DNA of 64,000 bases from an uncultured Planctomycetota bacterium (GCA_964493415.1 CAZBND010000005.1:39076-103075), one strand, 5' to 3'. Positions 4,892-32,471 are shown, numbered from the stretch's first letter. Notes: generated from the sequence alone by a model not told the origin. A program made the numbers and translations.

Positions 4892-5114
4892 TGCAAAGCC
4901 TCCCTGGAAGATGTCCCACTTGCTCTGAGCCAGGCCGGAATCCAGATCCGGCGTTCGGTCAACGCCGTAAACTTAATTTCTGCGGGGGCTGTTGTCAACA
5001 AGCCTGCCGCTGCAATACCTCCCGCGTCCCGCAGGCCAGCCGCTCATACGAGTAGCTTGACGCCTATGAAACCAGCGACTATGCTGCACGGGCCAGCAGT
5101 CCGTCAGCACAGAT

Positions 5115-9524: not shown

Positions 9525-11041
9525 GGACGGACGGCCTCCTCGTGGAAGGTCACTTCGAGCGCGACATAGCCATCTGCGCTTGCGTCCTTTCGCGCCAGCA
9601 CAAACCGCAAGGTATTAACGTTCATGGCAAACGCCTCAGTGCCCAACGGCCAACGGATATTTTCCCCCTCGCGTCGCCCAAGGTGATAAAGCTTACCTGG
9701 GTCATATCCCAGCGACCTGTCGACAGCGCTCAGGTACGCTTCTGCGGCCTCGAGGTCGGGCCCTAACAAGCTCAGCTCCTTCACGGCAACGGGAAGTTCA
9801 AAACTCACGAGAACGTGCTTCCTCCCCACGGGAAGGCTCGGGGTGTACGCAGGGTCCGTCGGACACGTAACCCGCCATCGTCCCTCACGCATGGGGACAA
9901 CTTGAATCGAAGAAGGCATCCAGTCATTTATCGCCGGCGACAGGGTCGGCGGCGGCGAAGAACGCTTCCCCAACACCGAAGGGTAGTAGCTTTCAAGAAC
10001 ATTCGCCGCCTTCTGCGCATAGAAATGGGTACAGATGGGTCCGGGGTGCCCATTTGCCGGGTTGATTCCCCATTTCAAAGGAGTGGCGGGACCGTAAGAG
10101 GTCGGGGAGTACTTGTCAATGAAGTCGCCAAGGATGTCGTGGAACGGGATCGCAGCCCTTTCGAAGAGCTGCCCCACTTTCTCGTAGCGTGAACTCAAAC
10201 CGGGATCCGGCGCATTCGGCAGAGTAATTGCGAACATCGGCACGCCGAGAGCTTCTTGCTCCTCTCCCAGCCGGCGGACGACCTCCTTGTAGGCGTCGAA
10301 GTTCTCCCCTTCGAGAAGCGCATGCTCCCAGATATCCATGGGGTTCTTTCCGGCAGTGTCTCCCGCGAAATGCGCGGCCATTCGCTTCGCGAAAAGCCGC
10401 TTTTCGACAAGATAGCTAATGTTTGGAAAGAGCCTCGATAGAGCTTTGTCGACAGGGCCGGGAGTGAATCGTTTGTAGTTGTGGGGGATTACGCCCATGT
10501 CTGGGTCGTTGCTCACATACCCGACGATTATTAGGTCCGGGTCGAGCCCTCTCAGGTTCTCATCGTTGCGCAACCACCACAACTGATCCTTGGTGCCGGC
10601 GCCGGACGCGCCCGCGGCCGCCACTTCGACATCCCAGTACCCTCGACGCTTGAGTTCCCTATCGAGTTGACGCCACCATATATCGTTTGCATTCGCGTAC
10701 CCGTCGCCCCAAACATAGGAATCCCCCAGGACGACAATCCTTCGGCGATGCCCCTTCCCTTCCGGGTAGGGCATCCCCGCTGACGTCCATACCGAGCCCT
10801 GCATTTTGACTTTCGCAAGATTGTTCCGTTCGATTATGGAGTTCTCCTGTTCCCAGGCCCTCGTGTCCAGCAGGCCCAGTCCCTGCGTTGCGCCGATGAC
10901 GACTTCCAAGCCCACCAAAATAACGACCAGCCCCGCGCACAGCAGTCCCAGGTAGCCCAGCGCCATAAGAGGCAGGACTGCATAGGATTTCCGCTTGATT
11001 GTAATAGAGAACGCAGCTTTGCAGTATGTGATGTCGTTCAC
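9521..11041 (-). CDS. Membrane-anchored SGNH/GDSL-family hydrolase (esterase/acyl-transfer)
   Basis: N-terminal TM helix followed by a GDS block (IVVLGDSYVWGDG). A later DPD.. block is typical of SGNH hydrolases. 4-nt overlap with the downstream carbamoyltransferase. Confidence 0.7.
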   Translation of the reverse strand: MNDITYCKAAFSITIKRKSYAVLPLMALGYLGLLCAGLVVILVGLEVVIGATQGLGLLDTRAWEQENSIIERNNLAKVKMQGSVWTSAGMPYPEGKGHRRRIVVLGDSYVWGDGYANANDIWWRQLDRELKRRGYWDVEVAAAGASGAGTKDQLWWLRNDENLRGLDPDLIIVGYVSNDPDMGVIPHNYKRFTPGPVDKALSRLFPNISYLVEKRLFAKRMAAHFAGDTAGKNPMDIWEHALLEGENFDAYKEVVRRLGEEQEALGVPMFAITLPNAPDPGLSSRYEKVGQLFERAAIPFHDILGDFIDKYSPTSYGPATPLKWGINPANGHPGPICTHFYAQKAANVLESYYPSVLGKRSSPPPTLSPAINDWMPSSIQVVPMREGRWRVTCPTDPAYTPSLPVGRKHVLVSFELPVAVKELSLLGPDLEAAEAYLSAVDRSLGYDPGKLYHLGRREGENIRWPLGTEAFAMNVNTLRFVLARKDASADGYVALEVTFHEEAVRP

Positions 11042-11212: not shown

Positions 11213-11301
11213 TGGTGCCGAAGGGGGGATTCGAACCCCCAAGGGCATGAATGCCCACTAGGTCCTGAACCTAGCGCGTCTGCCAGTTCCGCCACTTCGG
11301 C
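11213..11301 (-). tRNA. tRNA-Leu (anticodon CAG), class II with long variable arm
   Basis: Reverse complement is GCCGAAGTGGCGGAACTGGCAGACGCGCTAGGTTCAGGACCTAGTGGGCATTCATGCCCTTGGGGGTTCGAATCCCCCCTTCGGCACCA. A 7-bp acceptor stem pairs with CTTCGGC. Anticodon loop is TTCAGGA. T-loop is GGTTCGAATCC. CCA is encoded. Confidence 0.85.
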
Positions 11302-17089: not shown

Positions 17090-20000
17090 CTACATCCCGA
17101 CCGCCAGTGCGGACTTGTTGTTCGATTCTGTTATCTCGTCTATCTCCCCGTCCGGGTCGACGACAACTAGGATATCACGGGGAGGCGATTCCAGAGTCCA
17201 CGGAATGCCGACGCGCAGAGTTTGTGGCAAAAGGTCCAGCGGAGCAGGCAGCTTGATCCCCACACCCCTGCCCACTTCGGTCATGCCGCTCTCGCCCACA
17301 TCGTACACAGCTACCGAGAATCGTGTCGCCTCCGCCGAACCGATGTTGTGGACTCTCACCTTCACGAGTCTGCTGAGTTGCTCGTACTCGACGTCCTCAG
17401 GACTGATGGCGAGGTCCGGCAGCAGCGAGGGCGCATCGCCCGAAGCTATCTGCTTAAGCTCAACGATGTAGGGCGTTCGCGGAGGCAGCGTCACGGGAAC
17501 GGGCTGGCCGCGGAACCTTATGCGCTGCTGCCCCGTCCCTGCGATCTCGTCGGGCTCGCCGTTCTCGTCCAAGTCGGGCCCGTACATCAGCTCATACGAA
17601 GCCCCCGGCTCCAGCAGCCACGGCCGAATGCCGCACTCCCGTTCCTTCGCCCGGAAATTGTACAGTGCAACCTTGAGCTGCTTTGTCCCGGATGTCAGCA
17701 CGACAGCAGCGAACTGGCGTCCTGGACCCACGTAGGTCACTTGAGGGTCCAGCCCGCCGGACGCACCCGCCGCGGTCATTGCCGTGTACGCCGCGTGAAG
17801 CCCCGGCCAGCCTATGCGGTCGGTGGCCAACGCGTCCGTGGTGGAAATCGGCCAGCGCTCCCGCGCACCTCTGATGCAGGTCTCGTTACGGCGACGCGCA
17901 TCGGGCAAGGACGTCACGCTCGGCTCGCCCCCCTCCCCCAATCCGAGGGTCCGCTGCAAACGCGCCCACAACTGCACGGCTCCCCCAAGTTGCCTCCCCG
18001 CCCATTCGGGGGACCCCGCTTCCGCCTCACCTTCCGACTGCCGTGCCCGCGCGGCCAGTTCCGCTTCGAGCCTCAGCGGCTCGAGGAACGCCCTGTCCCC
18101 GCTGCGCTCGTAAGCGCCCACCAAGAGGTCCGTAATGTAGTCGTGATATCGGCTGTCCCAATCATAGTTGACGGTTCCTCCGGCATGGTTCGCGATGAAC
18201 CACGAGGGTGACTCGGTGCCGCCGATCTCACCGGTTTCGAATCCGATTTCGGAGGGGATTACGCCGCTGGGTTTCCCCTTCTCAGCGGACATTGACGCTT
18301 CCAGCCAAGCTTTCGCCCACCCGTCGAACAGCGCCGCGACCGAGGGATTGCCGCTGTACCACAGGACCGACCGAGCCGGAAGGGCGCATCGGTAGTTTAT
18401 CCGCGAGTCATTCGCCTGGAGCCCCGTGCCCACCCGGGTTGCCCCGACCATGTTGGAGCGGAATAGATATTGACCGCGGTCGTTATGGTCCATCCAGAGA
18501 TCGCGCATGAGCTTCGCCACCTTGAGGCCAAGCTCCGTCCACGTCGGGTTGCCGTAGTCCAGGATCACCATGGTGGGAATAGTGTCGCCCGTCCATTCGC
18601 CCGTGTGCTCGGCGTCGCCCATCCCGCCGAAGAACCCCGCCTCGGGATCCATGTTGGGGGACGCGAGAGCCCCGTTGACTATCCCAGCGCAGAGCTCGAC
18701 CATCTTCTCCGAGGCGTCCGGGCAGATGGAGCCGTATGTGCCGAACAGCCGGAGGATCTCCACGTCGTCTCCCCACCCGCCGCCCACCGATCCATCCGGG
18801 AATTGCTTGTTCTCGTACCACCATTCGCCCAGGTCGAGGCAGCGATTGTACGCCTCGTACACGGCTGCGGCCCACTCGGGCGCCCCCTCCGTGGCCGGAG
18901 AATAGTCGGGATAGTTGGGCCACTCGGGGCCGGGCGACCAGTCATCGTACAGGTACAGCCGGACGAAGCGGTTGTTCGGGAACTTGGTTTCGACCTCTCT
19001 AAGCAGATCGGCGGCCTTGCCGGATGCCATGACCCACCGGTGCGGGTCGAACATGTATAGCCCGCGGGCCTCATGAATCTTGGCCTTGAGGTAAACGGGC
19101 TCTCCGCGATGAATGAGGTCCAACTTCCCTATGCCCCTGAAAACCCGCCAGTAACCGTTCTCCCACGACGTATCCGCATGCCGCAAATCCGGGGGCAGGG
19201 CCATCTGATCCGAGAATGAGACCGCTCTATGCAGTATCGAATCTATGCCCTGATTGAAATTGACAAGAACCTCCAACAGATGCTCCGCCCGTTCATCTCC
19301 CGGATTCGCCTTGTTGTAGGCCTCAACCGCGGCGATCGCCTTCGGCGCAAGTTCCAGCTCCCGCTCGTAGTCGGGATTGCCTGCCAGGAACGCGTAGGCC
19401 CTGGCTTTCGCATATCCAAGCAGCGCGTCGCTTATGCCGTCCAGCTTCCGCTCCGCCTCAACGAATCGCTGGACGTTATACGCCTGCAGTGCTTGCTCAA
19501 TCGTGCCAACCTGCGGAACGCTGGCAGAGGCGGGAATCGCAGTGCGATCCAGCACCAGCGCGCCGTCAGCTTCAACTATCGGCTCGGGCGCGTAACGATA
19601 GACCTCTACTCCGAGAACGCTGTTTGTCGTAAACGGCAGGCCGATATCCCTGTAGGGCGCATGGGGCTTCAGCCGTCTTCCCTGTCTGACGAGCCAGGAT
19701 TCGGGCGAGGGCTTCTGCTCCTCCTCCGCCAACCACTTGTCATAGTCTGATTGGTCCCCCGCGAAGTTCAGCGCAAGCCCCTCGTTCCCCACGCTCACCG
19801 GGAAACGCACGCGCTGGTAGTAGCCGTACCAGTCCCCTTGGGCCGAGCCGCCCCGCGAAGCCCAGTGCTTGGCGTTGACGTTCTTCACCATCAACTCGCC
19901 GTTGGCGTAAACCGACATGGAGCCCAGGCCCCGCGTCAAATCCCCCAGCGTAACAACCACCACGTAGTCACCCTCACGGAGATCTACCTTGAAGGTCATG

Positions 20001-20305
20001 TCTTCCGTATCGCGAACTCCATCCCGATTCAGGGCGGTCGCGGTCTTATCGAACAAGGTATCCCTGAAGACGAACCAATGCGCCAGTCGGGCGGGTCTTT
20101 CCGACTCGAATGATTCGTGTCCCGTCTCGAGCCACCCGTAGCCGAGTTCAGGGGAATAGAGGGTCCTCCCCTCTACCTTGATAAAGCCGTCTAACACGCG
20201 CGATGTGCCCGTACCCATGTCAAACTTGGCTGGGGCGGAAACGACCGCCCACGCTGAGCCCGCCACAAGCACGGCCACAATCAATATCGCCACTTTCGAC
20301 CTCAT
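17090..20305 (-). CDS. Large secreted protein, paralog 2 of 3; CARDB-like C-terminus
   Basis: The likely start is the second ATG (MRSKVAILIVAVLVAGSAWA), because GGGAGGGGG lies just upstream of it. Same conserved blocks as paralogs 1 and 3. Confidence 0.75.
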   Translation of the reverse strand: MRSKVAILIVAVLVAGSAWAVVSAPAKFDMGTGTSRVLDGFIKVEGRTLYSPELGYGWLETGHESFESERPARLAHWFVFRDTLFDKTATALNRDGVRDTEDMTFKVDLREGDYVVVVTLGDLTRGLGSMSVYANGELMVKNVNAKHWASRGGSAQGDWYGYYQRVRFPVSVGNEGLALNFAGDQSDYDKWLAEEEQKPSPESWLVRQGRRLKPHAPYRDIGLPFTTNSVLGVEVYRYAPEPIVEADGALVLDRTAIPASASVPQVGTIEQALQAYNVQRFVEAERKLDGISDALLGYAKARAYAFLAGNPDYERELELAPKAIAAVEAYNKANPGDERAEHLLEVLVNFNQGIDSILHRAVSFSDQMALPPDLRHADTSWENGYWRVFRGIGKLDLIHRGEPVYLKAKIHEARGLYMFDPHRWVMASGKAADLLREVETKFPNNRFVRLYLYDDWSPGPEWPNYPDYSPATEGAPEWAAAVYEAYNRCLDLGEWWYENKQFPDGSVGGGWGDDVEILRLFGTYGSICPDASEKMVELCAGIVNGALASPNMDPEAGFFGGMGDAEHTGEWTGDTIPTMVILDYGNPTWTELGLKVAKLMRDLWMDHNDRGQYLFRSNMVGATRVGTGLQANDSRINYRCALPARSVLWYSGNPSVAALFDGWAKAWLEASMSAEKGKPSGVIPSEIGFETGEIGGTESPSWFIANHAGGTVNYDWDSRYHDYITDLLVGAYERSGDRAFLEPLRLEAELAARARQSEGEAEAGSPEWAGRQLGGAVQLWARLQRTLGLGEGGEPSVTSLPDARRRNETCIRGARERWPISTTDALATDRIGWPGLHAAYTAMTAAGASGGLDPQVTYVGPGRQFAAVVLTSGTKQLKVALYNFRAKERECGIRPWLLEPGASYELMYGPDLDENGEPDEIAGTGQQRIRFRGQPVPVTLPPRTPYIVELKQIASGDAPSLLPDLAISPEDVEYEQLSRLVKVRVHNIGSAEATRFSVAVYDVGESGMTEVGRGVGIKLPAPLDLLPQTLRVGIPWTLESPPRDILVVVDPDGEIDEITESNNKSALAVGM

Positions 20306-20377
20306 ATGTCCCCCTCCCTTCAAACCTGAAATCCCTTAGCGGCCGGAATCCGACAACACTGCGCGCAACGTCAGCAA

Positions 20378-21814: not shown

Positions 21815-22073
21815 TCGATTCTCCCTTTCCAGGCTGGTTGCCTACAGAGCCTGATCAAGTCGCTGCGTTCGGAAAACGCCGCGGCGACCAGGCAGCTATT
21901 CTAGCCCTTAGAGGACTGCCTGCCAACCGTGGATTCGCTCGCTGCCGCCACATCCGCTCATCGGACGATTGTGAGTTGACACCCCCGACACTTGCGCTAT
22001 ACTCATGGAGTATTTCCCGTCCTGCGCGCGGATCAGTCGTAACCGGCTTTCAGCAGCAAGGGAGGTTACAGAC

Positions 22074-25000
22074 ATGCGGAAGGTGGACCGTAGGAAGATG
22101 CTCGTTTGTTTGGCGGCATTCTTGGCTGCGTTTACAGCCGCCCGAAGCTGGGCCGCGCCGCTGAAGTTGGACATGGGTACGGCCGATTCGCCCGTGGCCC
22201 CCGGCTTCGTCCGCGTCACAGCGGACCAGCGTTACGATGCCGCAAAGGGCTTTGGCTTCGTCGAAGGACCCTACACTTCGTTCAACACCACAGGTCCGTC
22301 GCCGCATGTCAACTTCGTGAGCCCCAGTTCGGCGACGGTGTACGAAGAGGGCGTGACGGATTTGAACCGCGATGGGCTGTGGTCGGATGGGGATTTGGTG
22401 TTCCGCGCCGACCTTCCCAACGGCAAGTACAGGGTATGGCTCACAATCGGCCACATGAACAAAGTCCTGGGCTCGATACAGGTCTACGCCAATGGGAAGC
22501 TGATAGCCAAAGACATCCAGGTGAGGCACATACGCTGGAGGTCTGGCCAAGATCAGGGCTACGGCTGGTTTCTTCCTATTCGGTTCACTGCGGATATCGA
22601 GCAAGGCTACCTTGAGATAAGGCTGCGCGGAGACGACACAGAGTATCAGAGACTTCTAGCGATTGAAAACGAGAAGCCCAGGCCCGTATCCTACGGAACC
22701 TATCCGGATCACCCTGAGAAAAAGCCCCGCGAGTACACGCTGCTGACAGACATTGGACTCCCCTTCGCCGGGAACTCCATCCTCGGACTGGAGATATACC
22801 CGTATCAGCAGCCGCCGGTGTTGGTGGCGGAAGATTCGCTGAACATCGCCATGACGGGAAGGCTCCCTTCCCCGGAGCTTCAGCAGGCAGTAAGGCTCTT
22901 CAACGCCGGTCGGTATGCCGAAGCTTGCGCCGCCGCCGAGAAGATCGAAGACTCGCATAAGTACGAGCGCGGAATCATATACCTGGCCCTGGCCGGGCGT
23001 CCCGAACTTGATAACGAAAGAGAAATGGTGAAAAAGGCCGAGGCCGATCTCGCCGCCGTTGTGACGGAAAGCCCCGAGGACCATGCAGCCAAGGAGCTGC
23101 TCTACCTGGCGAGGCAGCTCAGAGACGGCGTCGAGCGCTTCCATCACAGAGGGGACGCCGGCGTGAACGGCTACTCCATGGTGAACATGGGTTCCATGTC
23201 CCTCGCCGCCCTCCAGCCGGAGGACCCTGTTTACTGGAAGGGGCAAATATACCGGGCCCGGATATTCTACATGGTTCAGCCGCACCGTTGGAGCTGGGTC
23301 TCGGGTGCCGGGATGGACATCCTCCTCGAGGTCGAGAAGAAGTGGCCCAACAACCGCTTCGTCAAGCTCTACCTCGACGGGGAATGGGAGGAAACGGAGG
23401 ACTGGAAAATCGGAGACTACGTCACGGGCACCGAAGGCGCGCCTGATTGGGCCGTGGCCTGCCGCGATGCGTGGAACCTCAACCTCGACCATGCGGAGTG
23501 GTGGATCGATAACAAGCAGCGCCCGGACGGCTCGCTCGGCGGAGGCTGGGGAGACGACGTGGAATTGATCGTCGATTTCGCGAATTACGTCTTTGTCAGC
23601 GAAGGCGTCCGACCCATCGTGCTCGAAGGGGTGAAGAATCTCGTCGAAGGCAACTGGAAATACTCCGGGATAGACCAGGAGGCGGGCTTCTACTGGGGGA
23701 TTGCCGACGTGGGCCACTCGGCCGAGCCGACCGCCGATACCCTCCCGATGATGATCTTCCTCGATTACGGCAGCCCCGTGTACGTGGAGCGCTGCATGAA
23801 GAGCGGAAAGCTCATGCGGGACCTGTGGACTGCAATCAATCCGAACGGCCATCGGCATTTCCGGTCGGATTACCTGGGCGCGTTCGGCGTAAAAGGAGGA
23901 GCCGTGGCAAACGACGGCTGGCTTAACTACCGTGCCGTCGTGGCTGCGGAGAAAGTGCTCTGGTACAACAGCAGCCCCACACTGGCGAAGCTCTTTGACG
24001 AGTGGGCGACCGCACTGCTTGAAGACACTATGAAGAGCGGGAGAGGCAAACCGGCAGGCGTCATGCCGTCCGTAGTTTCCTTCGCCGATTGCACTTTGGG
24101 AGGTGTGGACTCCCCTACATGGTACACTCCGAACAACGCCGACGGGTTTAACCCCGGGTGGGGACACAACTACTCCAATCCGGCAGGCTACCCGCTGAGC
24201 CTTCTAGGCGGCGCATATGACCGTACCGGCGACGCCCGCTTCCTCGAGCCGTTCCGCATCCAGGCCGAACTCGCCCTCAAGGCCAAGGCAAGCCCCGTCG
24301 AGAAGCCCGAAGAGGGCTCCTTCGAATGGGTGTGTGCGGGCCTTCTCGAATCCGGAGCGCCCGAATTGTGGGAGTTCATCCAGGATAGGCACCTGGGCTC
24401 AGACCCGGCGGGAGCGCGGTTCATGACCCGCGAAGATGCAAGGGAGGAAGCCGACTGGGTACGCCTTAGAATCAAAATGCGCTGGCCCATCGACACGACG
24501 GAGGCCCTCGTGACCGACAGAGTGGGATTCGGGGGGATCACCAATGCCGTGAGGGTTTACACCGGCGGCGGCGTCTTCGTCCGCCAACCCATTGTCAATT
24601 ACGTGGACATCGGCAAGGACTTCGCAGCTTTCCCCCTCCGCGCCGACCGCTCCCATCTGCGCGTGCTGCTCTACAGCTTCTACGACGAAGAGAGGGAAGT
24701 CGGCATCAGGCCGTGGCAACTCGCACGCGGCACCAAGTACAGGATGGCGGCCGGCCCGGACAAGGATGGAGACGAAATTCCCGACGAAGTTATCCAATCC
24801 TCGACCTTTGATTTCGAGCATAGAGGCCAGACCGTCCGCTTCCGGCTTCCCCCAAGAACGGAGACGGTGGTAGTCATCGAGCCGGCCGCAGAGGTTGCCC
24901 TCGGGCATGATACGCTCTCGCCGGACCCGGCCATCGGCGTCGGAGATACAGAGTACTGGAGTGACAGAAATTCCCTGATCGTGCGAGTGCACAACATTGG

Positions 25001-25310
25001 CGCTGCTCCCGTCAAGGACCTCTCCTTGCAGGCGTGGGAGGGCACGCCGGAGGACGGCAGGCTCATCGGCACATCATTCATACCGTACATCGAAGCGCCG
25101 AACGACCTCACCGCACAAACCGTCAGGGTGGCCTTCGGATGGAAGCCGGCGGAGGAGAGCTCGAACACGGTCTGCGTGGTGCTCGATCCGGACGACGAAA
25201 TAGACGAAATCACCACGAAGAATAACCGTTTCGTCTACGAACTCGACCTTCAGTCGGTCTCCCCTGCGGCAGCCAAGCCTAACGAGCAGCAGGCGCAACC
25301 ATCGTCATAG
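22074..25310 (+). CDS. Large secreted protein, paralog 3 of 3; CARDB-like C-terminus
   Basis: ATG 22074 preceded by AGGGAGG. Signal peptide MRKVDRRKMLVCLAAFLAAFTAARSWA. Same conserved blocks as paralogs 1 and 2. Divergent from paralog C. Confidence 0.75.
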   Translation: MRKVDRRKMLVCLAAFLAAFTAARSWAAPLKLDMGTADSPVAPGFVRVTADQRYDAAKGFGFVEGPYTSFNTTGPSPHVNFVSPSSATVYEEGVTDLNRDGLWSDGDLVFRADLPNGKYRVWLTIGHMNKVLGSIQVYANGKLIAKDIQVRHIRWRSGQDQGYGWFLPIRFTADIEQGYLEIRLRGDDTEYQRLLAIENEKPRPVSYGTYPDHPEKKPREYTLLTDIGLPFAGNSILGLEIYPYQQPPVLVAEDSLNIAMTGRLPSPELQQAVRLFNAGRYAEACAAAEKIEDSHKYERGIIYLALAGRPELDNEREMVKKAEADLAAVVTESPEDHAAKELLYLARQLRDGVERFHHRGDAGVNGYSMVNMGSMSLAALQPEDPVYWKGQIYRARIFYMVQPHRWSWVSGAGMDILLEVEKKWPNNRFVKLYLDGEWEETEDWKIGDYVTGTEGAPDWAVACRDAWNLNLDHAEWWIDNKQRPDGSLGGGWGDDVELIVDFANYVFVSEGVRPIVLEGVKNLVEGNWKYSGIDQEAGFYWGIADVGHSAEPTADTLPMMIFLDYGSPVYVERCMKSGKLMRDLWTAINPNGHRHFRSDYLGAFGVKGGAVANDGWLNYRAVVAAEKVLWYNSSPTLAKLFDEWATALLEDTMKSGRGKPAGVMPSVVSFADCTLGGVDSPTWYTPNNADGFNPGWGHNYSNPAGYPLSLLGGAYDRTGDARFLEPFRIQAELALKAKASPVEKPEEGSFEWVCAGLLESGAPELWEFIQDRHLGSDPAGARFMTREDAREEADWVRLRIKMRWPIDTTEALVTDRVGFGGITNAVRVYTGGGVFVRQPIVNYVDIGKDFAAFPLRADRSHLRVLLYSFYDEEREVGIRPWQLARGTKYRMAAGPDKDGDEIPDEVIQSSTFDFEHRGQTVRFRLPPRTETVVVIEPAAEVALGHDTLSPDPAIGVGDTEYWSDRNSLIVRVHNIGAAPVKDLSLQAWEGTPEDGRLIGTSFIPYIEAPNDLTAQTVRVAFGWKPAEESSNTVCVVLDPDDEIDEITTKNNRFVYELDLQSVSPAAAKPNEQQAQPSS

Positions 25311-25449: not shown

Positions 25450-26820
25450 TCAAGGCGTAGCGTTGTTGTCCTGGCCGAACCTTCGGGCAAATGCTCGGTA
25501 CATACCAGTGAGGGGCCGGATTCCCGGAAGCGCGTATATCAACTGGTTCACTCCCAGGTGGCTCACAGGCTTGACCTCGCGCAAACGTCCCAATGTCAAC
25601 ATTCCAGCAAACAGCCTGAGCCCAGCGGAGACCGCAAAGAGCGTTCGAATCTCGTATCCGCCCAAGGGCGGCAGGTGCGACAGCAGCAGCCCCCCCAAGA
25701 ACGGGCTGACTGCGCCGGCGACCCCTCTCAAAACAAGCGAATACGAAATGTAGCGCCCGCGCGTCTCGGGCACGGCGGCATCCAGGATGTAGTTCCACGA
25801 AGCAAGAAAAAACGCCGACCAGCAAATCCCCGCGATGAACTGAAGTAGAGCCAAATAATAAAAGTTGCCGCTTATCGTCCAGAGCGCCGGGATGGCGACG
25901 ATTCCCGGCCACACCACCCTCAGCACCTTTGCATTGCCGAATCGGTCTCCCAGGTGTCCCCAGAAGCGTATGAAAACCAGGTGCGTAACCGAAGCCACGA
26001 GCCCCAGTACGGTGAGACGCGTGTACGACATGCCAAGGTCCCGCAGCATGTACACCTGAAAGAACGGTGCGCAGATACGGGTCGCGAAGATTATCGCGGC
26101 GAAGTATAGCCCGGCGGTCAGCGCGTCGCGGTTCCCGCCCCCGGATAAGTAACGGAGGAAGCTCACCTGCTCCGAAGTGGGCTCTTCGCTCATAGGCGGC
26201 TCGTATTGCACCCAGACGGCTAAGCCTGAAATTGCCCTGAATCCCGCCGCCATGCCGAACACGATCGCGAATCCCATGAATCTTCCGGCGGGATAAGCGT
26301 CCAGCAGCACCGCACAGAAGTATGCGAAGGGCATCGCGAAGAAGCCCGTCACCTGGTCACGCCAGCCGAAGTACCGCGACCGGCTCCCGTCGGGCAGCAG
26401 GTCCGCCATCCAGCTCCCCCACGCACCCATCTGAATCTGCCCGAACGTCGCGTACATGGTAAAAACTATCAGCGCCGCGTAAAACCTTGGCCCGGGGCGA
26501 AGCCCCGAAATCGACAAAAGGCATATCAGCCAAAAGACTTGAAAGAAGACCGCCGCGAGGCAAAGCGGCTTCCTCCGCCCCGTCCTCGCGACAATCCCCG
26601 GCGACACGAGATTCGATAACGACGCCATCACGTAAGGAATCCCGGCAAAGAGGCCGATCTGCTGGTCGCTGAATCCGAGCCTGATGGCGTACGGAACGGC
26701 GAAGCGCTCGACGACGCCGATGGACGCGTAGGCCGCCAGTCCGTCCACCAACGAGAAGAAAAGGGCGCGGTGAATCGGCCGCGATGCCGACCAAGGGGCG
26801 CGCCATCCACGGGGTACCAT
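25450..26820 (-). CDS. MFS transporter
   Basis: Twelve predicted TM segments with an MFS-like loop pattern (e.g. PGIVARTGRRKP after TM2). The start is uncertain; Met at 26820 or 26928. Confidence 0.7.
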   Translation of the reverse strand: MVPRGWRAPWSASRPIHRALFFSLVDGLAAYASIGVVERFAVPYAIRLGFSDQQIGLFAGIPYVMASLSNLVSPGIVARTGRRKPLCLAAVFFQVFWLICLLSISGLRPGPRFYAALIVFTMYATFGQIQMGAWGSWMADLLPDGSRSRYFGWRDQVTGFFAMPFAYFCAVLLDAYPAGRFMGFAIVFGMAAGFRAISGLAVWVQYEPPMSEEPTSEQVSFLRYLSGGGNRDALTAGLYFAAIIFATRICAPFFQVYMLRDLGMSYTRLTVLGLVASVTHLVFIRFWGHLGDRFGNAKVLRVVWPGIVAIPALWTISGNFYYLALLQFIAGICWSAFFLASWNYILDAAVPETRGRYISYSLVLRGVAGAVSPFLGGLLLSHLPPLGGYEIRTLFAVSAGLRLFAGMLTLGRLREVKPVSHLGVNQLIYALPGIRPLTGMYRAFARRFGQDNNATP

Positions 26821-26991
26821 TCTAAGAAGTCTCCGGAACTCATCAGTCGGTCGTGAACCTTCAGGATAACCTAAACCGCAACGATGACAACCTTTCTCGA
26901 CCCGATCATTCAAAACGACCCGCATCACGGCTAACGTTGGCGAACGCGCCCGCGTCGGCCGGAGCCCAGCGCGATTAACTCACTCGCGGGC

Positions 26992-27020
26992 TTGACTACT
27001 ATACCTCTGTATAGTATACT
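26992..27020 (+). promoter_or_regulatory. sigma70-like promoter (TTGACT-17-TATACT) with an embedded palindromic candidate LexA operator, CTATAC-ctct-GTATAG overlapping GTATA-g-TATAC
   Basis: Read directly from the sequence. The -35 is at 26992-26997 and the -10 at 27015-27020. The inverted repeats occupy the spacer and the -10. GGAG lies 6 nt before the lexA ATG at 27037. Confidence 0.55.
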
Positions 27021-27036
27021 CCTGCCGGAGACACGA

Positions 27037-27624
27037 ATGGCCTTGACCGATAGACAGCGAGAGATTCTGGATTTTATCACGGCATACGGTGCGGAGAACG
27101 GCTTCGCGCCCACTGTCCGAGAGGTCGCTGCGGCTTTCGGATACCGATCACCGAAGGCTGCGCACGATCATATGAGGGCCCTGGAGCGAAAGGGGGCCGT
27201 TCGGCGGACGCGCGGCATTGCGAGAGGGCTGGAGTTGCGCGACCGGCAGCCGGCCGGCGTACCCGTGCTGGGGGTGGCTCCAGCCGGGCGGCCACTCCTC
27301 GCCGAGGAGGTCCCCGGAGACATGCTCCCCTCGCCTCTCGGTTTCGGTAACGGCGGAAAGCTCTTCGCGGTGAAGGTCGTCGGTGACAGCATGGAGCCTT
27401 TACTCAGCTCCGGCGATCACGCGGTCATCAGAGCCGAACAGACCGCACAACCCGGGGAGATGGTGGCCGCACGTGTCGAGGGCGAGGTGACGCTGAAGCG
27501 TCTCGCGCGGCGCAAGAATAGGCTGGTGTTGAAGCCCGAGAATCCGTCCTACCCCGTGATTCCCGTCACCCGCGACACCCGGATCATCGGCAAGGTCGTG
27601 GGAATGTACAGGCGCTTCGAGTGA
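27037..27624 (+). CDS. lexA: LexA repressor (S24 peptidase), copy 1
   Basis: N-terminal winged HTH (LTDRQREILDFITAY..NGFAPTVREVA). C-terminal S24 domain (VKVVGDSMEPLL...GEVTLKRL). Ala-Gly cleavage-site context is present. Confidence 0.9.
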   Translation: MALTDRQREILDFITAYGAENGFAPTVREVAAAFGYRSPKAAHDHMRALERKGAVRRTRGIARGLELRDRQPAGVPVLGVAPAGRPLLAEEVPGDMLPSPLGFGNGGKLFAVKVVGDSMEPLLSSGDHAVIRAEQTAQPGEMVAARVEGEVTLKRLARRKNRLVLKPENPSYPVIPVTRDTRIIGKVVGMYRRFE

Positions 27625-28202
27625 GGTCGACGGTGGCCGCCGGGTTCATGCTTGTCGAAACCGAAGGCGCAAGTGCGGAGGTCTCTTCGCGCCTTGCCGC
27701 GCGGCTGGCTGCCGGCGACGACCGCGTGTTCTACCTTGACGGGGAAAACGGATTCCGCGTCTATGCAGCCGCAGAAGAGGCGGAAGCGCAAGGCACGCCC
27801 GCCTTGGATGCGCTGGAGAGAATCCAGGTAGCGCGGGCGTTCACGTGCTTCCAGATGGTGGAGCTTCTGCGCAACGCGGCACGCAAACTTGCCGCAGAAG
27901 ACATAGCCATCCTTGCGGGCCCATGCACCGCGTTCGCCGACGAGAACGTTACAGACCGCGAGGTCAGCTTTTTTCTCGGAAAGGCTCTGGACTCGGCGAA
28001 GCAGCTCTCTTCTCGGACGACCTTGACCTTCCAATCGGGAGAAGACTTAGGCCGCAGACCCTGGCTTCTCTCGCGGCTTCGCGCAGCCGCTGCTGCCTGC
28101 GTCGTCCTTCCGCAGACGGCAAACGTGGGCGAGCTGCTGAGAAAACTGAACAAACGGAGGATTCTCAAGTGGGGCGCACCGCACCCTCTTTCAGCCGAGT
28201 GA
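27621..28202 (+). CDS. Hypothetical protein co-translated with lexA (SulA/ImuA-like by position only)
   Basis: GTG start overlaps the lexA stop (GTGA). 193 aa. No motif recognised. Annotation is by synteny only. Confidence 0.5.
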   Translation: MRSTVAAGFMLVETEGASAEVSSRLAARLAAGDDRVFYLDGENGFRVYAAAEEAEAQGTPALDALERIQVARAFTCFQMVELLRNAARKLAAEDIAILAGPCTAFADENVTDREVSFFLGKALDSAKQLSSRTTLTFQSGEDLGRRPWLLSRLRAAAAACVVLPQTANVGELLRKLNKRRILKWGAPHPLSAE

Positions 28203-28261
28203 TTGATGCAGAGGCCGAACGATGGAGAAAATTCCGCCGCGCCCTGCGCAAGGAGGACCAG

Positions 28262-28420
28262 ATGTTGTTCGACCGCATCTTCCACAGAGCGAGGCGCAAC
28301 GTCCAGGCATGGGCCTACGCCGCGATGCCTCATCCCTTCGAAGCGCTGGTCATGAGTGTGCTGCTGGATCAGGAGAGAGAACTTCGCGAGCTTCGAACAC
28401 GCAGTCAGGCGACCACGTGA
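28262..28420 (+). CDS. Small ORF (52 aa; or 73 aa from GTG 28199), in an alternative frame, coupled to the polymerase gene
   Basis: AAGGAGG lies 5 nt upstream of ATG 28262. Product MLFDRIFHRARRNVQAWAYAAMPHPFEALVMSVLLDQERELRELR is helix-rich and not low-complexity. Its TGA overlaps the polymerase GTG start (GTGA). Confidence 0.45.
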   Translation: MLFDRIFHRARRNVQAWAYAAMPHPFEALVMSVLLDQERELRELRTRSQATT

Positions 28421-30597
28421 CGCGGACGATTCGAGGGCTACTTCTTGACGTGTACCCTACGCCCGAAGGCATGGTGCTGTGGATACGCGTCAGCCGCGAC
28501 GTGCTCAGGCTGGAGGACCGCATCCCCCTCCCCTTCTACCTTGGCGGAAGAGCTTCGGTAAGGACGAGGGCGCTACTGCGGCTTGCAAAGCGCGGGCTCG
28601 TCGGGCGATCACGTCAGACCCGCATGACCGATTTCTGGTCCGGCGAGAAAATAGCCGTCACCGAAGTCATCTGCCCGGGGTACGGTCACCGCAAGGAGGT
28701 CGCCTCGGCGTTGCTCCCGCTCGAGGGCGAACTCGATGTCTACAACTCCGACATCCCGGAGGACCAATACCACCTGTACCTTCGAGGCCTGTTCCCCCTT
28801 GCCGAGGTCGAGGTCGAGGCGTCCGGCTCGACGGTGACCTCCATCGCGCCGACTTCATCTCCCTGGGAAAAGAGGTACGAGTCCCCGGAACTTCCGTGGC
28901 TGGAGCTGGCCGTCGAAGGAGATCGAGGAAGAGGGCTCCGGGCAGGGACCCTTCGACTGCGCACGTGGGCCGGAACCGACATGGAACTGAGCCCCTCTCC
29001 GTCGGCCGAGGCGCTGGAGGCGCTGGCCGCCGTCATGGAGCAAACCGACCCGGACCTGGTGCTGACCGACCGGGGCGACTCGTACCTCCTACCCGAGCTG
29101 GAGACGATGGCGCGACGTAAGGGAATCAATCTTGGGTTGGACCGAGAGCCTCTTCGCGTGGGGGTTCGTCGAGGCGCGCCGGCGCGCAGTTACTTCAGCT
29201 ACGGACGAATTGTCCACAAGGACGCGAGCTTCGAACTCGCGGGCCGCATCCACGTGGACCGCAGCAACTCCTTCATCTACCGGCAGTGCGGGCTCGACGG
29301 TCTGGTGGAGTTCGCGCGAATCAGCAAGCTGCCGCTCCAGCGGGCGGCGCGCGGCTCACCGGGAACCGCCATAAGTTCCATGCAACTGGATCAGGCGGTG
29401 CGCGACGGTATCTTGGTCCCCTATCGCAAGTCGCGGGTAGAGGACTTCAAGTCCGCCGCGCGACTATTGGCAGGCGACAAGGGCGGCTTGATATTCATGC
29501 CGCCTCCGGGACTGCACGCGCGCGTCGCGGAGATCGACTTCCAGTCCATGTATCCCAGTCTCATGGCGCTTCACAATATATCTCCCGAGACAGTAGGATG
29601 TGAATGCTGCACCGGCTCCGACGTTCCGGAACTGGGCTATCACATCTGCAAGCGCAGGAGGGGCTTGGTTCCCCGCGTCCTCGCGCCCCTTCTCGAGAGG
29701 AGAGCCTTGTATAAAGCCAGGGCCACATCCGGCGACGGGAGCCCGAGAGAGCCGTACGCCAGCCGGCAAGCCGCGCTGAAATGGATGCTGGTAACCTGTT
29801 TTGGCTATCTGGGATACAAGAACGCGCGCTTTGGGAAGATCGAGTCGCACGAGGCCGTGACAGCGTTCGGGCGAGAGGCCCTGCTCGCTGCGAAGGAAAT
29901 CTGCGAGTCGCGCGGATACGAAGTGCTCCACGCCATGACCGACTCGCTCTGGATCAAGCCCCTGGGGCAGGACGCGGAGAATCTCAATTCCCTCTGCGCG
30001 CGGATAACCAGCATGACGGGCGTGAGCATGCGCGTGGAAGCGCGCTACAGGTGGGTGGTCTTCCTCCCGTCGCGAGCGGACCCCGGGAGACCCGTCCCCA
30101 ACCGCTTCTTCGCCGCCACTGAGGACGGTCGGCTGAAGGCACGAGGCCTCACGTTGCGTAGGGGCGACACCCCGGAGTTCATAAGGGATGCGCAACATAA
30201 GCTTCTCGATCTTCTCGCTCGCGCAGCCGATCCCCTGCAACTGCGCGAAATCGCCGCGACCGAGGGGGCCGCCTTGGCCGAAGCCTTTCACTTCGCGCTC
30301 ACCTCGGGTGAGGTCCACCCGGACAGCCTCCTGATCGAGCGAAGGATGTCCAAAGAGTTGAGCGATTACGCGAACGAGACCATGGCTCAATCCGCGGCCC
30401 TGCAGCTTGAGAAGGCCGGAAGGCGCGTGAGACCAGGACAGAGCGTCCGGTACTTGATTTGTCGAGACTCTCCAGGTAGCCGCGAAGCACACGCAAAACC
30501 GTACGAGTTAGTGGGCCCTGATGACGGCTACGACGCAGCCAAATACCGCGAGATGCTCCGGCAAGCTGTCAAGGAGGCCCTGCTTTACGAACGATAA
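28417..30597 (+). CDS. Family-B DNA polymerase (PolB/Pol II-like) lacking recognisable 3'-5' exonuclease motifs
   Basis: Motif A is IDFQSMYPS. Motif B-like is KWMLVTCFGYLGYKNARFG. Motif C-like is LHAMTDSLW. The N-terminus LLDVYPTPEGMVLWIR is PolB-like. No Exo I (DIE), II or III motifs were found. I favour the GTG start at 28417, but the ATG at 28222 is possible. Confidence 0.7.
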   Translation: MTRTIRGLLLDVYPTPEGMVLWIRVSRDVLRLEDRIPLPFYLGGRASVRTRALLRLAKRGLVGRSRQTRMTDFWSGEKIAVTEVICPGYGHRKEVASALLPLEGELDVYNSDIPEDQYHLYLRGLFPLAEVEVEASGSTVTSIAPTSSPWEKRYESPELPWLELAVEGDRGRGLRAGTLRLRTWAGTDMELSPSPSAEALEALAAVMEQTDPDLVLTDRGDSYLLPELETMARRKGINLGLDREPLRVGVRRGAPARSYFSYGRIVHKDASFELAGRIHVDRSNSFIYRQCGLDGLVEFARISKLPLQRAARGSPGTAISSMQLDQAVRDGILVPYRKSRVEDFKSAARLLAGDKGGLIFMPPPGLHARVAEIDFQSMYPSLMALHNISPETVGCECCTGSDVPELGYHICKRRRGLVPRVLAPLLERRALYKARATSGDGSPREPYASRQAALKWMLVTCFGYLGYKNARFGKIESHEAVTAFGREALLAAKEICESRGYEVLHAMTDSLWIKPLGQDAENLNSLCARITSMTGVSMRVEARYRWVVFLPSRADPGRPVPNRFFAATEDGRLKARGLTLRRGDTPEFIRDAQHKLLDLLARAADPLQLREIAATEGAALAEAFHFALTSGEVHPDSLLIERRMSKELSDYANETMAQSAALQLEKAGRRVRPGQSVRYLICRDSPGSREAHAKPYELVGPDDGYDAAKYREMLRQAVKEALLYER

Positions 30598-30669
30598 GTA
30601 TTAGATAGTGCCCGAGGGTTGCCCGGGCGCTTGAGGCAGGCGGGCGACCGCAGACGACGACAGCAAGCG

Positions 30670-30697
30670 TTGACGCGAGCCGGAAAGAGGGTATAAT
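30670..30697 (+). promoter_or_regulatory. sigma70-like promoter TTGACG-16-TATAAT upstream of the HD-GYP gene
   Basis: Read directly from the sequence. Followed by an out-of-frame ATG (30715) with AAGGAGAGG, then the real start at 30750 with AGGGAGG. Confidence 0.5.
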
Positions 30698-30749
30698 AAT
30701 CCTGCAAGGAGAGGATGGCGGGCAGCGGCGCTTCCGACAGGGAGGCCGT

Positions 30750-32471
30750 ATGCCGCAAGCGGAAGAAGTCGAGGACCCCGCAGGTTACAACACTCTCGCA
30801 AAGGTCCACGAGCAATTGGCAGACGCTCATAGGGACCTGCGTGAGGCGTATAGCCAGCTTGAGTGCTCCAATTTCAGTCTCGCCGAGAAGGCCCGCCGGC
30901 TCAAAGCCCTTTTCGAGCTTGCGAAGTCCGTGACGTCCGACCTGGAGCTCGGAAAGACCCTGGAGCACACCATCAACATCACCTGCCACCTTCTCGGCAC
31001 TGACTGCTGCTCAATCCGCATCCTCAACGAGCAGCGCACCGAGCTGCTCATGCGCGCCTCGACCGGCCTCTCAAGGGCTTACCTGCAAAAGGGAAGCGTC
31101 AAGGTGGGCGAGAGCGTCGCAGGCATCGTCGTGCGGGAGGGAAAGCCCCGCATCGTTCGTGACATGCAGTACAACTCCAATTACCGATACCCCGAATACG
31201 CCGCTTCAGAAGGCTTGCGTTCCCTCTTATGCGTCCCGCTCTTGGCCAAGGGAAGCGTCATCGGCGTGTTGACCGTGTACTGGAAACAGCTACACGAGTT
31301 CAGCGACGAAGAAGTCGCGATGATGGAGGCGGTCGCCGATCTCAGCGGCGTCGCCATCGCGGCGGCCAACACGCACGAAAGTCTGGAGAGAGCCCATAAG
31401 CAGCTATCCTCGCTGTATTCCCTCACGCGCGACATCTGCTCTCCGCTGACGCTCGACAGGGTCCTCGATATAGTTAAAGAGGTCATTGCCGCGGAGCTGA
31501 GCGTCGAGCGTGTCGCCATATTGCTGAGGGAACGCGCAAGCGAGCTCGTCGTCAGAGCGGTGTCGGGCCCTGAGGATGGGCTTAAATTGGGCCGCGTGGT
31601 CCGAATCGGAGAGGGGGTCTCCGGCTGGGTCGCACGCGACGGGAGGTCCGTGCTGATCAACGATGTTTCCTCCATGGAACAGAGACCGCACGGCTGGAGA
31701 CGACTCAGGTCCGTCCTCTCGGTCGCCTTAAAGGCCCGGGGCGAGGTCCTCGGGGTCATCACCGTGGCGAATCGGCTTAGCAGGGAGGGGTTCACCGAAG
31801 CAGATAAGGATTTCCTGGAAGCGCTGGCCGGCGGCGCGGCGATGTCCATCCATGCCGCAGGCCTATACTCGCAGTTGCAGCGAAACTACGTGGATATCGT
31901 CACCAGCCTGGCGGTCGCACTGGAGACCCGCGACCATTACACCAAGGGGCATTCCGAGAGGGTAAGCTGGCTCGCCAGCGAAACCGCGCTTGCCATGGGG
32001 CTCGACGACGATACGGTCAGATTCCTCGAACAGGCCGGCAGGTTGCACGACATTGGCAAGATAGGCTGGACCGACATCATCCTGGGCAAGAACGGCCCAC
32101 TTACAGAAGCGGAATGGGATCAGGTGAGGCAGCATCCTGTCGTCGGCAGCCAGATCGTGGGAGCCGCAGACATCATCTCCGGCGTCGCGCCTCTGGTCCT
32201 TGCCCACCACGAACGTATTGACGGCTCAGGCTATCCGAACAAGCTCAAAGGAGACGACATCCCCGTAGGCGCGCGGATTGTGGCAGTCGCCGACTCCTAC
32301 GACGCGATGCGTTCAGAAAGGCCGTACAGGGCCGCACCAAAGACCGAGAGAGAAACGAGGGCGGAGTTGATAAGAAGCGCGGATGTCCTCTTCGACCCAG
32401 TGATCGTGGAGGCGTTCCTGAGGACCCTGAGAAAAGTCCCCGCGGAGCAATGGGAACGCGAATCGAGGTAG
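30750..32471 (+). CDS. GAF-GAF-HD-GYP domain protein (putative c-di-GMP phosphodiesterase or signal transducer)
   Basis: C-terminal HD-GYP hallmarks include HSERVSWLA, RLHDIGKIG, LAHHERIDGSGYP and VADSYDAMRSERPYR. Two GAF-like regions lie N-terminal. Confidence 0.85.
   Translation: MPQAEEVEDPAGYNTLAKVHEQLADAHRDLREAYSQLECSNFSLAEKARRLKALFELAKSVTSDLELGKTLEHTINITCHLLGTDCCSIRILNEQRTELLMRASTGLSRAYLQKGSVKVGESVAGIVVREGKPRIVRDMQYNSNYRYPEYAASEGLRSLLCVPLLAKGSVIGVLTVYWKQLHEFSDEEVAMMEAVADLSGVAIAAANTHESLERAHKQLSSLYSLTRDICSPLTLDRVLDIVKEVIAAELSVERVAILLRERASELVVRAVSGPEDGLKLGRVVRIGEGVSGWVARDGRSVLINDVSSMEQRPHGWRRLRSVLSVALKARGEVLGVITVANRLSREGFTEADKDFLEALAGGAAMSIHAAGLYSQLQRNYVDIVTSLAVALETRDHYTKGHSERVSWLASETALAMGLDDDTVRFLEQAGRLHDIGKIGWTDIILGKNGPLTEAEWDQVRQHPVVGSQIVGAADIISGVAPLVLAHHERIDGSGYPNKLKGDDIPVGARIVAVADSYDAMRSERPYRAAPKTERETRAELIRSADVLFDPVIVEAFLRTLRKVPAEQWERESR

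Follow-up and report, generated by a model that had tools for sequence, protein, structure and literature searches.

A lexA-iRadA-PPB2-PolB2 operon from an uncultured Planctomycetota bacterium as a probable further example of the bacterial PolB2 mutasome

Introduction

Makarova, Krupovic and Koonin (2014) reported that the genes for the family-B DNA polymerase PolB2, an inactivated RadA and the small protein arCOG07300 are linked in archaea and several bacteria (PMC4104785). In some bacteria lexA belongs to the same predicted operon, for example LFML04_0990-0993 in Leptospirillum ferriphilum, and the substitutions found in the motifs of PolB2 were read at that time as inactivation (PMC4104785). 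Timinskas, Timinskas and Venclovas (2025) renamed the two partners iRadA and PPB2, gave iRadA-PPB2-PolB2 as the only order of the genes in bacteria, and found lexA to be enriched near bacterial PolB2, with 108 neighborhoods in their Table S1 (PMC11791011). Here, we analyze a 64,000-nucleotide (nt) stretch of DNA from an uncultured Planctomycetota bacterium (GCA_964493415.1, CAZBND010000005.1:39076-103075), hereafter the window, in which positions 26992 to 30597 carry lexA followed by three genes that we identify as iRadA, PPB2 and PolB2. We conclude that this locus is a further example of a known system rather than a new kind. Very probably, it is an operon for a bacterial PolB2 mutasome with the lexA-iRadA-PPB2-PolB2 arrangement, which corresponds to group 1a of Timinskas et al.

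The term PolB2 mutasome comes from AlphaFold models in which PolB2, iRadA and PPB2 assemble as a 1:1:3 heteropentamer (PMC11791011). PPB2 is described there as a trimeric protein with a fold like that of a sigma-factor N-terminal domain; in the published models its MGRT arm contacts a D(K/R) loop of PolB2, and the stretch preceding this loop binds iRadA in the manner of a Rad51 oligomerization motif (PMC11791011). Loss of the first Asp of the DxD sequence in motif C is a hallmark of the PolB2 family (PMC11791011). The Dpo2 polymerase of Sulfolobus islandicus is a PolB2 with IID in motif C and, in the account of PMC11791011, which cites the Dpo2 studies PMC7390963 and PMC8764526, it is induced by damage, is needed for targeted mutagenesis and functions as an extender.

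Results

Four genes are arranged behind a single promoter

The region 26992-30597 contains four co-oriented genes on the + strand, overlapping or nearly abutting, and these four consecutive genes lie where an earlier note on this DNA, made from the sequence alone, had drawn them. The first, lexA (27037-27624), encodes a self-cleaving SOS repressor of 195 amino acids (aa) and is preceded by the Shine-Dalgarno sequence GGAG at 27027-27030. Its start is the ATG at 27037, the TTG at 26992 that a mechanical call proposes being the -35 hexamer of the promoter. The second gene, iRadA (27633-28202), encodes an ATPase-dead Rad51/RadA core of 189 aa when read from a GTG at 27633, or 193 aa when read from a GTG at 27621. 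It is followed by PPB2 (28169-28420; arCOG07300/DUF8156), which starts with GTG and encodes an 83-aa helical protein with an N-terminal MGRT arm, and by PolB2 (28417-30597), whose product is a family-B DNA polymerase of 726 aa in which the exonuclease domain is decayed and motif C reads MTD.

Both GTGA overlaps that had suggested translational coupling are present, one at 27621-27624 on the lexA stop codon and the other at 28417-28420, where the TGA of PPB2 overlaps the GTG of PolB2 at 28417. At the first of them, gene 2 may instead start at the GTG at 27633, which has GAGG 6 nt upstream and is the start in the public call of the Joint Genome Institute (JGI). We compared the window with L081, a locus whose PolB2 is 70% identical to that of the window. 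Both GTGs are conserved in L081, so gene 2 may start at either 27633 or 27621; at the PolB2 start codon, L081 has ATG.

A scan for consensus sites over 26800-30900 detected nothing resembling a terminator, and between the starts of lexA and the polymerase it detected nothing resembling a promoter; the earlier note had counted a promoter or terminator that separates the polymerase from lexA against the cassette. Two + strand promoter matches at 9 of 12 consensus positions both lie deep within the polymerase gene. The next gene on the + strand, encoding a GAF-GAF-HD protein (30750-32471), is served by a separate strong promoter, TTGACG-N16-TATAAT at 30670-30697, which matches the consensus at 11 of 12 positions and sets the 3' boundary of the cassette. 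With no terminator-like site in the region, no promoter-like site between the lexA and PolB2 starts and a promoter of its own for the following gene, the four genes form a single transcription unit as far as the sequence can tell. In L081, the call for the GAF-GAF-HD gene (8184-10052) adds 49 aa, and its start and the PolB2 stop overlap; the operon relation of this gene may differ between the two loci, or the L081 call may be too long.

The polymerase keeps its catalytic motifs and has lost its exonuclease residues

The product of the fourth gene matched Pfam family PF00136, and alignment with KOD polymerase confirmed the polymerase motifs that had been recognized in the earlier note. Motif A (DFQSMYPS) keeps D374 and Y379, motif B (KWMLVTCFGYLGY) keeps K455, and HAMTDS in motif C (M507-T-D509) aligns to YSDTDG of KOD and HSIIDS of Dpo2. 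The exonuclease motifs, noted earlier as missing, are indeed degraded in this alignment: D141 and E143 of KOD Exo I fall on P and S, or on A and T in the ungapped register, with no acidic side chain; in Exo II, D215 is replaced by Leu and N210 by Arg; and the Exo III segment, which lacks Y-x3-D, falls short of that of KOD by about 50 residues. As judged from the aligned sequences, the catalytic residues of Exo I and Exo II are lost. The AlphaFold model of PolB2 has a predicted local distance difference test (pLDDT) score of 85.6, and its closest structures are full-length archaeal PolB structures, with template modeling (TM) scores of 0.72 to 0.75. The model superposes over the full archaeal PolB length; the exonuclease domain is a remnant and not a deletion.

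Comparison with S. islandicus Dpo2, whose sequence, like those of the other S. islandicus proteins used here, was taken from the supplement of Timinskas et al. (PMC11791011), gave 38% identity over 220 aa of the palm and fingers (E value, 2e-45). D354-K355 of the window polymerase aligns exactly to 253-DK-254 of Dpo2, in a loop that precedes motif C by about 150 residues. The FxxA sequence, F344-K-S-A347, is located in a low-confidence loop (residues 339-350 have low pLDDT), and a short helix follows at 347-353; a segment that becomes ordered on binding a partner would be expected to look like this. PolB2 thus combines the substituted first DxD Asp, a dead exonuclease remnant and a D(K/R) loop preceded by a sequence resembling the Rad51 oligomerization motif.

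We counted these features over 81 family members. The first residue of motif C was I, L or M in all 81 sequences ([ILM]-x-D), DKGG or DRGG was present in 78 of them, and F-K-[ST]-A in 50. Motif A (DFxSMYP), motif B (KWxLVxCFGYLGY) and the second Asp of motif C were invariant or nearly so. These counts bear on the proposal, first made in 2014, that PolB2 is catalytically inactive and that its complex, instead of synthesizing DNA, acts as a structural or regulatory element at stalled forks or in the control of replication (PMC4104785). The proposal fits the Met in place of the first motif C Asp and the loss of the exonuclease residues, substitutions of the kind that were read as inactivation in that study. 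However, Dpo2, which carries the similar substitution IID, is active and required for damage-induced mutagenesis according to the report in PMC11791011, and the conservation of motif A, motif B and the second motif C Asp across the 81 sequences argues for selection on catalysis. We therefore regard an inactive PolB2 as unlikely and retain the reading of PolB2 as the polymerase of a mutasome.

A search with PADLOC returned no substantive match to a defense system; the polymerase matched an "HEase" model that evidently contains a PolB segment.

iRadA is a Rad51/RadA core without ATPase motifs

The product of the second gene matched the Pfam Rad51 family (PF08423) at 30.5 bits, against a gathering cutoff of 22, over residues 17-94. 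It also matched RAD51, RAD51D and RadA chains in the PDB and was collinear with RAD51 residues 143-220. Because the alignment starts at RAD51 residue 143, iRadA begins at the ATPase core, without the N-terminal helix-hairpin-helix domain. It has no GK[ST] Walker A sequence, the corresponding segment reading ..ETEGASAEV.., and the Walker B position reads AILAGP instead of hhhhD, with the Asp replaced. Hence, the protein is a Rad51/RadA core that lacks the N-terminal domain and the Walker A and B residues. A BLASTP comparison with S. islandicus iRadA gave no match.

Two variations on iRadA were seen among the relatives examined. C termini resembling the beta-clamp-binding motif QLxLF occur in the iRadA of L045, L057, L065, L078 and L079 (for example, ..QLRLFG and ..QLNMFS); Timinskas et al. 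found a clamp-binding motif in only a fraction of the members and did not treat it as defining (PMC11791011). In addition, the iRadA and PPB2 matches of L067 fall in one open reading frame (3707-5092), i.e., an iRadA-PPB2 fusion, and such fusions were reported by the same authors (PMC11791011).

The small third gene is PPB2 and starts further upstream

The earlier note had placed a small open reading frame of 52 to 73 aa between gene 2 and the polymerase. We assign its start to the GTG at 28169, 30 nt upstream of the former placement at GTG 28199, with GGAGGA at 28156-28161, seven bases before it. The resulting gene shares 34 nt with the 3' end of iRadA, and its 83-aa product begins with MGRTAPSFSRVI (M-G-R-T...). 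Several observations led to this correction. L081 has an ATG at the position of the PPB2 start and a GTA at the position of GTG 28199. The N terminus reads MGRT in 59 of 63 full-length homologues and MGRN in the other 4, each with a start codon there. Finally, the JGI public call gives the identical 83-aa product and assigns it to PF26485. The Pfam and NCBIfam libraries that we searched yielded no match for either the 73-aa or the 83-aa version, and PF26485 comes from the precomputed annotation only.

The AlphaFold model of PPB2 is all-helical with a free N-terminal arm. Its moderate pLDDT of 75 is explained by a shallow alignment, the word-indexed homologue search having provided 7 matches. 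A profile of 64 PPB2 sequences matched S. islandicus PPB2 with an hhalign probability of 92.6% and an E value of 4.5e-7, collinear over 65 residues, whereas the shallow profile matched Sulfolobus PPB2 at the N terminus only. The third gene thus encodes a helical protein in the range of 80 to 100 aa with the N-terminal MGRT arm of arCOG07300/PF26485.

PPB2 also matched phrog_26583 and phrog_30126 over the full length of these families, and iRadA matched phrog_16666. All three are families of unknown function, and it follows from these matches that sequences classed as viral or proviral also contain copies of the cassette partners.

The gene order is conserved in distant relatives

The earlier note had counted an absence of conserved synteny elsewhere against the cassette, and we found such synteny. 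In a homologue scan with one genome per GTDB species, at least 595 loci contained a relative, and we analyzed the best 80 of these. They belong to Thermodesulfobacteriota, Acidobacteriota, Nitrospirota, Bacteroidota, Ignavibacteria, Chloroflexota, Armatimonadota, Sumerlaeota, Elusimicrobia and Bathyarchaeia, and the maximum identity to the window PolB2 among these best 80 of at least 595 loci was 46%. At the 54 loci with at least 2.6 kb of upstream sequence, iRadA and PPB2 were upstream of PolB2 on the same strand in 50, and lexA was directly upstream as well in 22. The order iRadA-PPB2-PolB2 was also found in the Bathyarchaeia loci L055, L061 and L062. The window carries the iRadA-PPB2-PolB2 operon with lexA upstream.

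A self-cleaving LexA and a recurrent palindrome as its putative operator

The lexA product contains the Pfam domains LexA_DNA_bind and Peptidase_S24 and scored 167 bits with the LexA equivalog model TIGR00498, for which the cutoff is 110.95. Collinear alignment with E. coli LexA identified A83-G84 as the cleavage site, S118 as the nucleophile and K154 as the general base. The protein therefore has the winged-helix domain, the S24 peptidase domain, the Ala-Gly site and the Ser/Lys dyad of LexA.

The promoter of the cassette (26992-27020, +) is of the sigma-70 type, with TTGACT at 26992-26997 as the -35 element, a 17-nt spacer, and TATACT at 27015-27020 as the -10 element. It matches the consensus at 10 of 12 positions; promoter-like matches in the 4.1-kb region numbered 6, compared to 0.6 expected. 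As the earlier note had observed, a palindrome is embedded in this promoter. The sequence TACTATACCTCTGTATAGTA at 26997-27016 fills the spacer, has perfect 8-bp arms (TACTATAC-CTCT-GTATAGTA; core, TATAC-N4-GTATA) and is a putative LexA operator. It is unique in the window even when 3 mismatches are allowed, with none expected by chance, and no further operator copy was found in the window, for example near a gene for an AddA-like protein. When the window was aligned with L081, the intergenic region proved to be diverged except for the block of the -35 element and palindrome and the ribosome-binding site; the operator is kept in L081 with one mismatch in an arm.

We then scanned all 80 GTDB loci, a total of 762 kb, for the core TATAC-N4-GTATA with at most 1 mismatch. 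The core was located within 200 nt upstream of the lexA start in 11 of the 22 lexA-linked loci, and the whole-locus scan added L010, giving 12 (L004, L009, L010, L012, L014, L017, L025, L031, L037, L042, L051 and L056). In the entire 762 kb, there were 15 such sites, of which 13 or 14 are at cassette promoters and 12 precede the lexA of a cassette. Among the others, a perfect site precedes iRadA in a lexA-less cassette (L023:3906) and another site precedes PolB2 (L071:4940). At several loci, the core sits in the spacer of TTGACA-N17-TATAxT, as it does in the window. Other cassettes carry GAAC-N4-GTTC (L018 and L020) or direct repeats of TTTCG/GTTCG (L007, L008 and L028). The core at cassette-linked lexA genes spans Thermodesulfobacteriota, Desulfobaccales, Nitrospirota, Bacteroidota and the lineage of the window. 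In our literature search, we found no LexA motif written as TAC-N4-GTA, and the core was absent from the LexA-binding motifs reviewed there.

This recurrence at cassette promoters supports control of the operon by LexA, and it suggests that the repressor may move as a unit with its operator and the mutasome. The recurrent TATAC-N4-GTATA operator is a small addition to the known system.

In the Bacteroidota metagenome-assembled genomes that contain L042, L051 and L056, the PolB2 cassettes are headed by perfect GTATAC-N4-GTATAC operators and encode a canonical LexA with a DNA-binding domain and an S24 peptidase domain; Bacteroidota are described as using noncanonical SOS regulators (PMC8565304).

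Genome context

The window and L081 have flanking genes in common, namely, those for a 1078-aa protein, an MFS transporter, a GAF-HD protein, a GHMP kinase, a PD40 protein and a MacB/ABC transporter, and the G+C content is similar across the cassette and its flanks. The shared flanks and continuous G+C content indicate a stable chromosomal locus and argue against the recent insertion of a mobile element.

The same observations help to evaluate the idea that the cassette is part of a prophage or mobile element, in which the S24 repressor would act as a CI-like lysogeny switch and the PolB as the replication enzyme of the element. Matches in PHROG are in line with this idea, since LexA matched phage repressors, PolB matched a phage DNA polymerase and PPB2 and iRadA matched families of unknown function. 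Yet the repressor scores above the LexA equivalog cutoff and has a winged-helix domain of the LexA type, and the polymerase lacks proofreading, unlike a replicase. The recorded gene calls up to 6 kb on either side include no integrase, transposase or structural gene, and the neighbors within this distance are the MFS transporter, the GAF-HD protein, the GHMP kinase and the ABC transporter. The flanks are identical in L081 despite a PolB2 that is only 70% identical, and the G+C content is continuous with that of the flanks. A prophage origin of this cassette is thus very unlikely, and we maintain the reading of the locus as probably a chromosomal PolB2 mutasome operon.

Elsewhere in the window, three large open reading frames of about 1080 to 1100 aa occur at 1640-4891 (-), 17090-20323 (-) and 22005-25310 (+). 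A C-terminal CARDB domain is the sole Pfam match of the first two, and the public gene call lists no Pfam family for the third. The AddA-like protein, encoded at 57876-61523 (-), combines a UvrD helicase with a PD-(D/E)XK nuclease domain; the long open reading frame next to it (61471-63990, -) may be AddB, and no TATAC-type operator is nearby. The sole RNA gene detected with ARAGORN and with Rfam gathering thresholds is a tRNA-Leu (CAG) at 11213-11301 (-).

Comparison with described mutagenesis systems

Compared to the known bacterial PolB2 operons of group 1a, the locus has the same gene content and order with lexA first, the MGRT, D(K/R) and FxxA sequences, the substituted Asp, the dead exonuclease and an iRadA without ATPase motifs and N-terminal domain. 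We found no qualitative difference. The window sequences are divergent (PolB2 at most 46% identical among the best 80 GTDB loci), a clamp-binding motif was not detected, and PPB2 overlaps iRadA by 34 nt.

The archaeal Dpo2 system of the Sulfolobales has homologous PolB2 (38%) and PPB2 (hhalign, 92.6%) proteins and is a damage-inducible, error-prone extender there. It differs in its gene order, PPB2-PolB2-iRadA, and in being regulated by factors of the Orc1/Cdc6 type rather than by LexA. The N-terminal and exonuclease region of Dpo2 is much more reduced, with DK at position 253 versus 354 in the window PolB2, and the iRadA of Sulfolobales is barely alignable with that of the window.

The earlier note had likened the locus to the imuA-imuB-dnaE2 cassette. 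The analogy holds in that ImuABC is also a LexA-linked multigene cassette, with an inactive accessory protein of the RecA superfamily and an error-prone polymerase without proofreading. The components are different: the polymerase of ImuABC is the C-family DnaE2, the adaptor is the dead Y-family ImuB, and there is no equivalent of PPB2, whereas the 193-aa protein of the window is a Rad51/RadA core (PF08423) in a cassette without ImuB or DnaE2. Indeed, none of the DnaE, ImuB and ImuA models in Pfam and NCBIfam matched the four products. E. coli DNA polymerase V (Pol V; UmuD'2C-RecA) is likewise an SOS-regulated multisubunit mutasome that includes a subunit of the RecA family and a small one bearing an N-terminal arm, but its catalytic subunit belongs to the Y family. 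E. coli Pol II (polB/dinA) is a LexA-regulated family-B polymerase but consists of a single subunit with an active exonuclease and intact Exo I-III; the NCBIfam Pol II models gave 28 to 60 bits on the window PolB2, against cutoffs of 570 to 1435.

The earlier note had inferred an SOS-linked, proofreading-deficient PolB translesion or mutagenesis system with two small accessory proteins, which agrees with what has been inferred in the literature for the same gene set. It had also taken the cassette to be an undescribed SOS mutasome, distinct from all known ones, and the locus does differ from imuA-imuB-dnaE2 and umuDC in all components. This claim of novelty fails, because the same four-gene operon was published by Makarova et al. 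in 2014 (PMC4104785) and Timinskas et al. in 2025 (PMC11791011), and each published sequence hallmark that we tested was found at the locus. A previously undescribed mutasome is therefore a most improbable explanation, and assignment to the bacterial PolB2 mutasome is preferred.

Discussion

The gene content, gene order and overlaps of the locus, its promoter and operator sequence, the hallmarks of the four protein families and the conserved synteny are confirmed here, and they can be combined with published work into a working model. LexA, encoded by the first gene, would bind the palindrome at 26997-27016 in the spacer of its own promoter and thereby repress the whole operon. Upon DNA damage, RecA filaments on single-stranded DNA would trigger the self-cleavage of LexA at A83-G84 by means of S118 and K154. 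A single transcript would then be produced, on which the overlapping or nearly abutting frames may couple the translation of iRadA, PPB2 and PolB2. PolB2, which retains the Asp of motif A, the Lys of motif B and the second Asp of motif C, would be the catalytic subunit and would act without proofreading. According to the published AlphaFold models, PolB2 is predicted to bind one iRadA through its FxxA loop (F344-A347), which resembles the Rad51 oligomerization motif, and a trimer of PPB2, one MGRT arm of which would insert beside the D354-K355 loop near the active site. By analogy with Sulfolobus Dpo2, the complex would carry out error-prone translesion synthesis, probably by extending primer ends that are mismatched or distorted by a lesion.

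Several points weigh against this model. Induction, complex formation and translesion synthesis in bacteria are extrapolated from Sulfolobus and from structure predictions, and the binding of LexA to the palindrome is itself a prediction from sequence. The recognition helices of the LexA proteins do not track the operator class cleanly and are not uniform among the LexAs that go with TATAC-type operators. The iRadA family profile matched Sulfolobus iRadA weakly, with an hhalign probability of 24%, which fits the remark made in 2014 on the fast evolution of these proteins (PMC4104785). Finally, we found no beta-clamp-binding motif at the C termini of the window iRadA (...KWGAPHPLSAE) or PolB2 (...KEALLYER), an absence often seen among family members.

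Among prokaryotes, the bacterial PolB2 mutasome would, as predicted, be the first translesion polymerase of family B with several subunits, and it parallels Pol V and the eukaryotic Pol zeta. Relatives are widespread, being present in at least 595 GTDB species genomes, and the evidence in bacteria has so far been computational throughout. The locus described here is a compact and clean example: one promoter serves tightly coupled genes, the putative operator is a perfect palindrome, and the self-cleaving LexA is intact. It also corrects the start of PPB2. The lexA of this cassette may, in addition, be more than the SOS repressor of the host. We tentatively suggest, as a possibility that we hold to be somewhat doubtful, that this repressor, its operator and the mutasome form a self-contained module, and that the module has passed between bacterial phyla along with a promoter-operator unit of its own (TTGACA, TATAC-N4-GTATA and TATAxT). 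If this were true, the bacterial PolB2 mutasome would be a mutagenesis module that is autonomous, inducible by damage and able to move horizontally.

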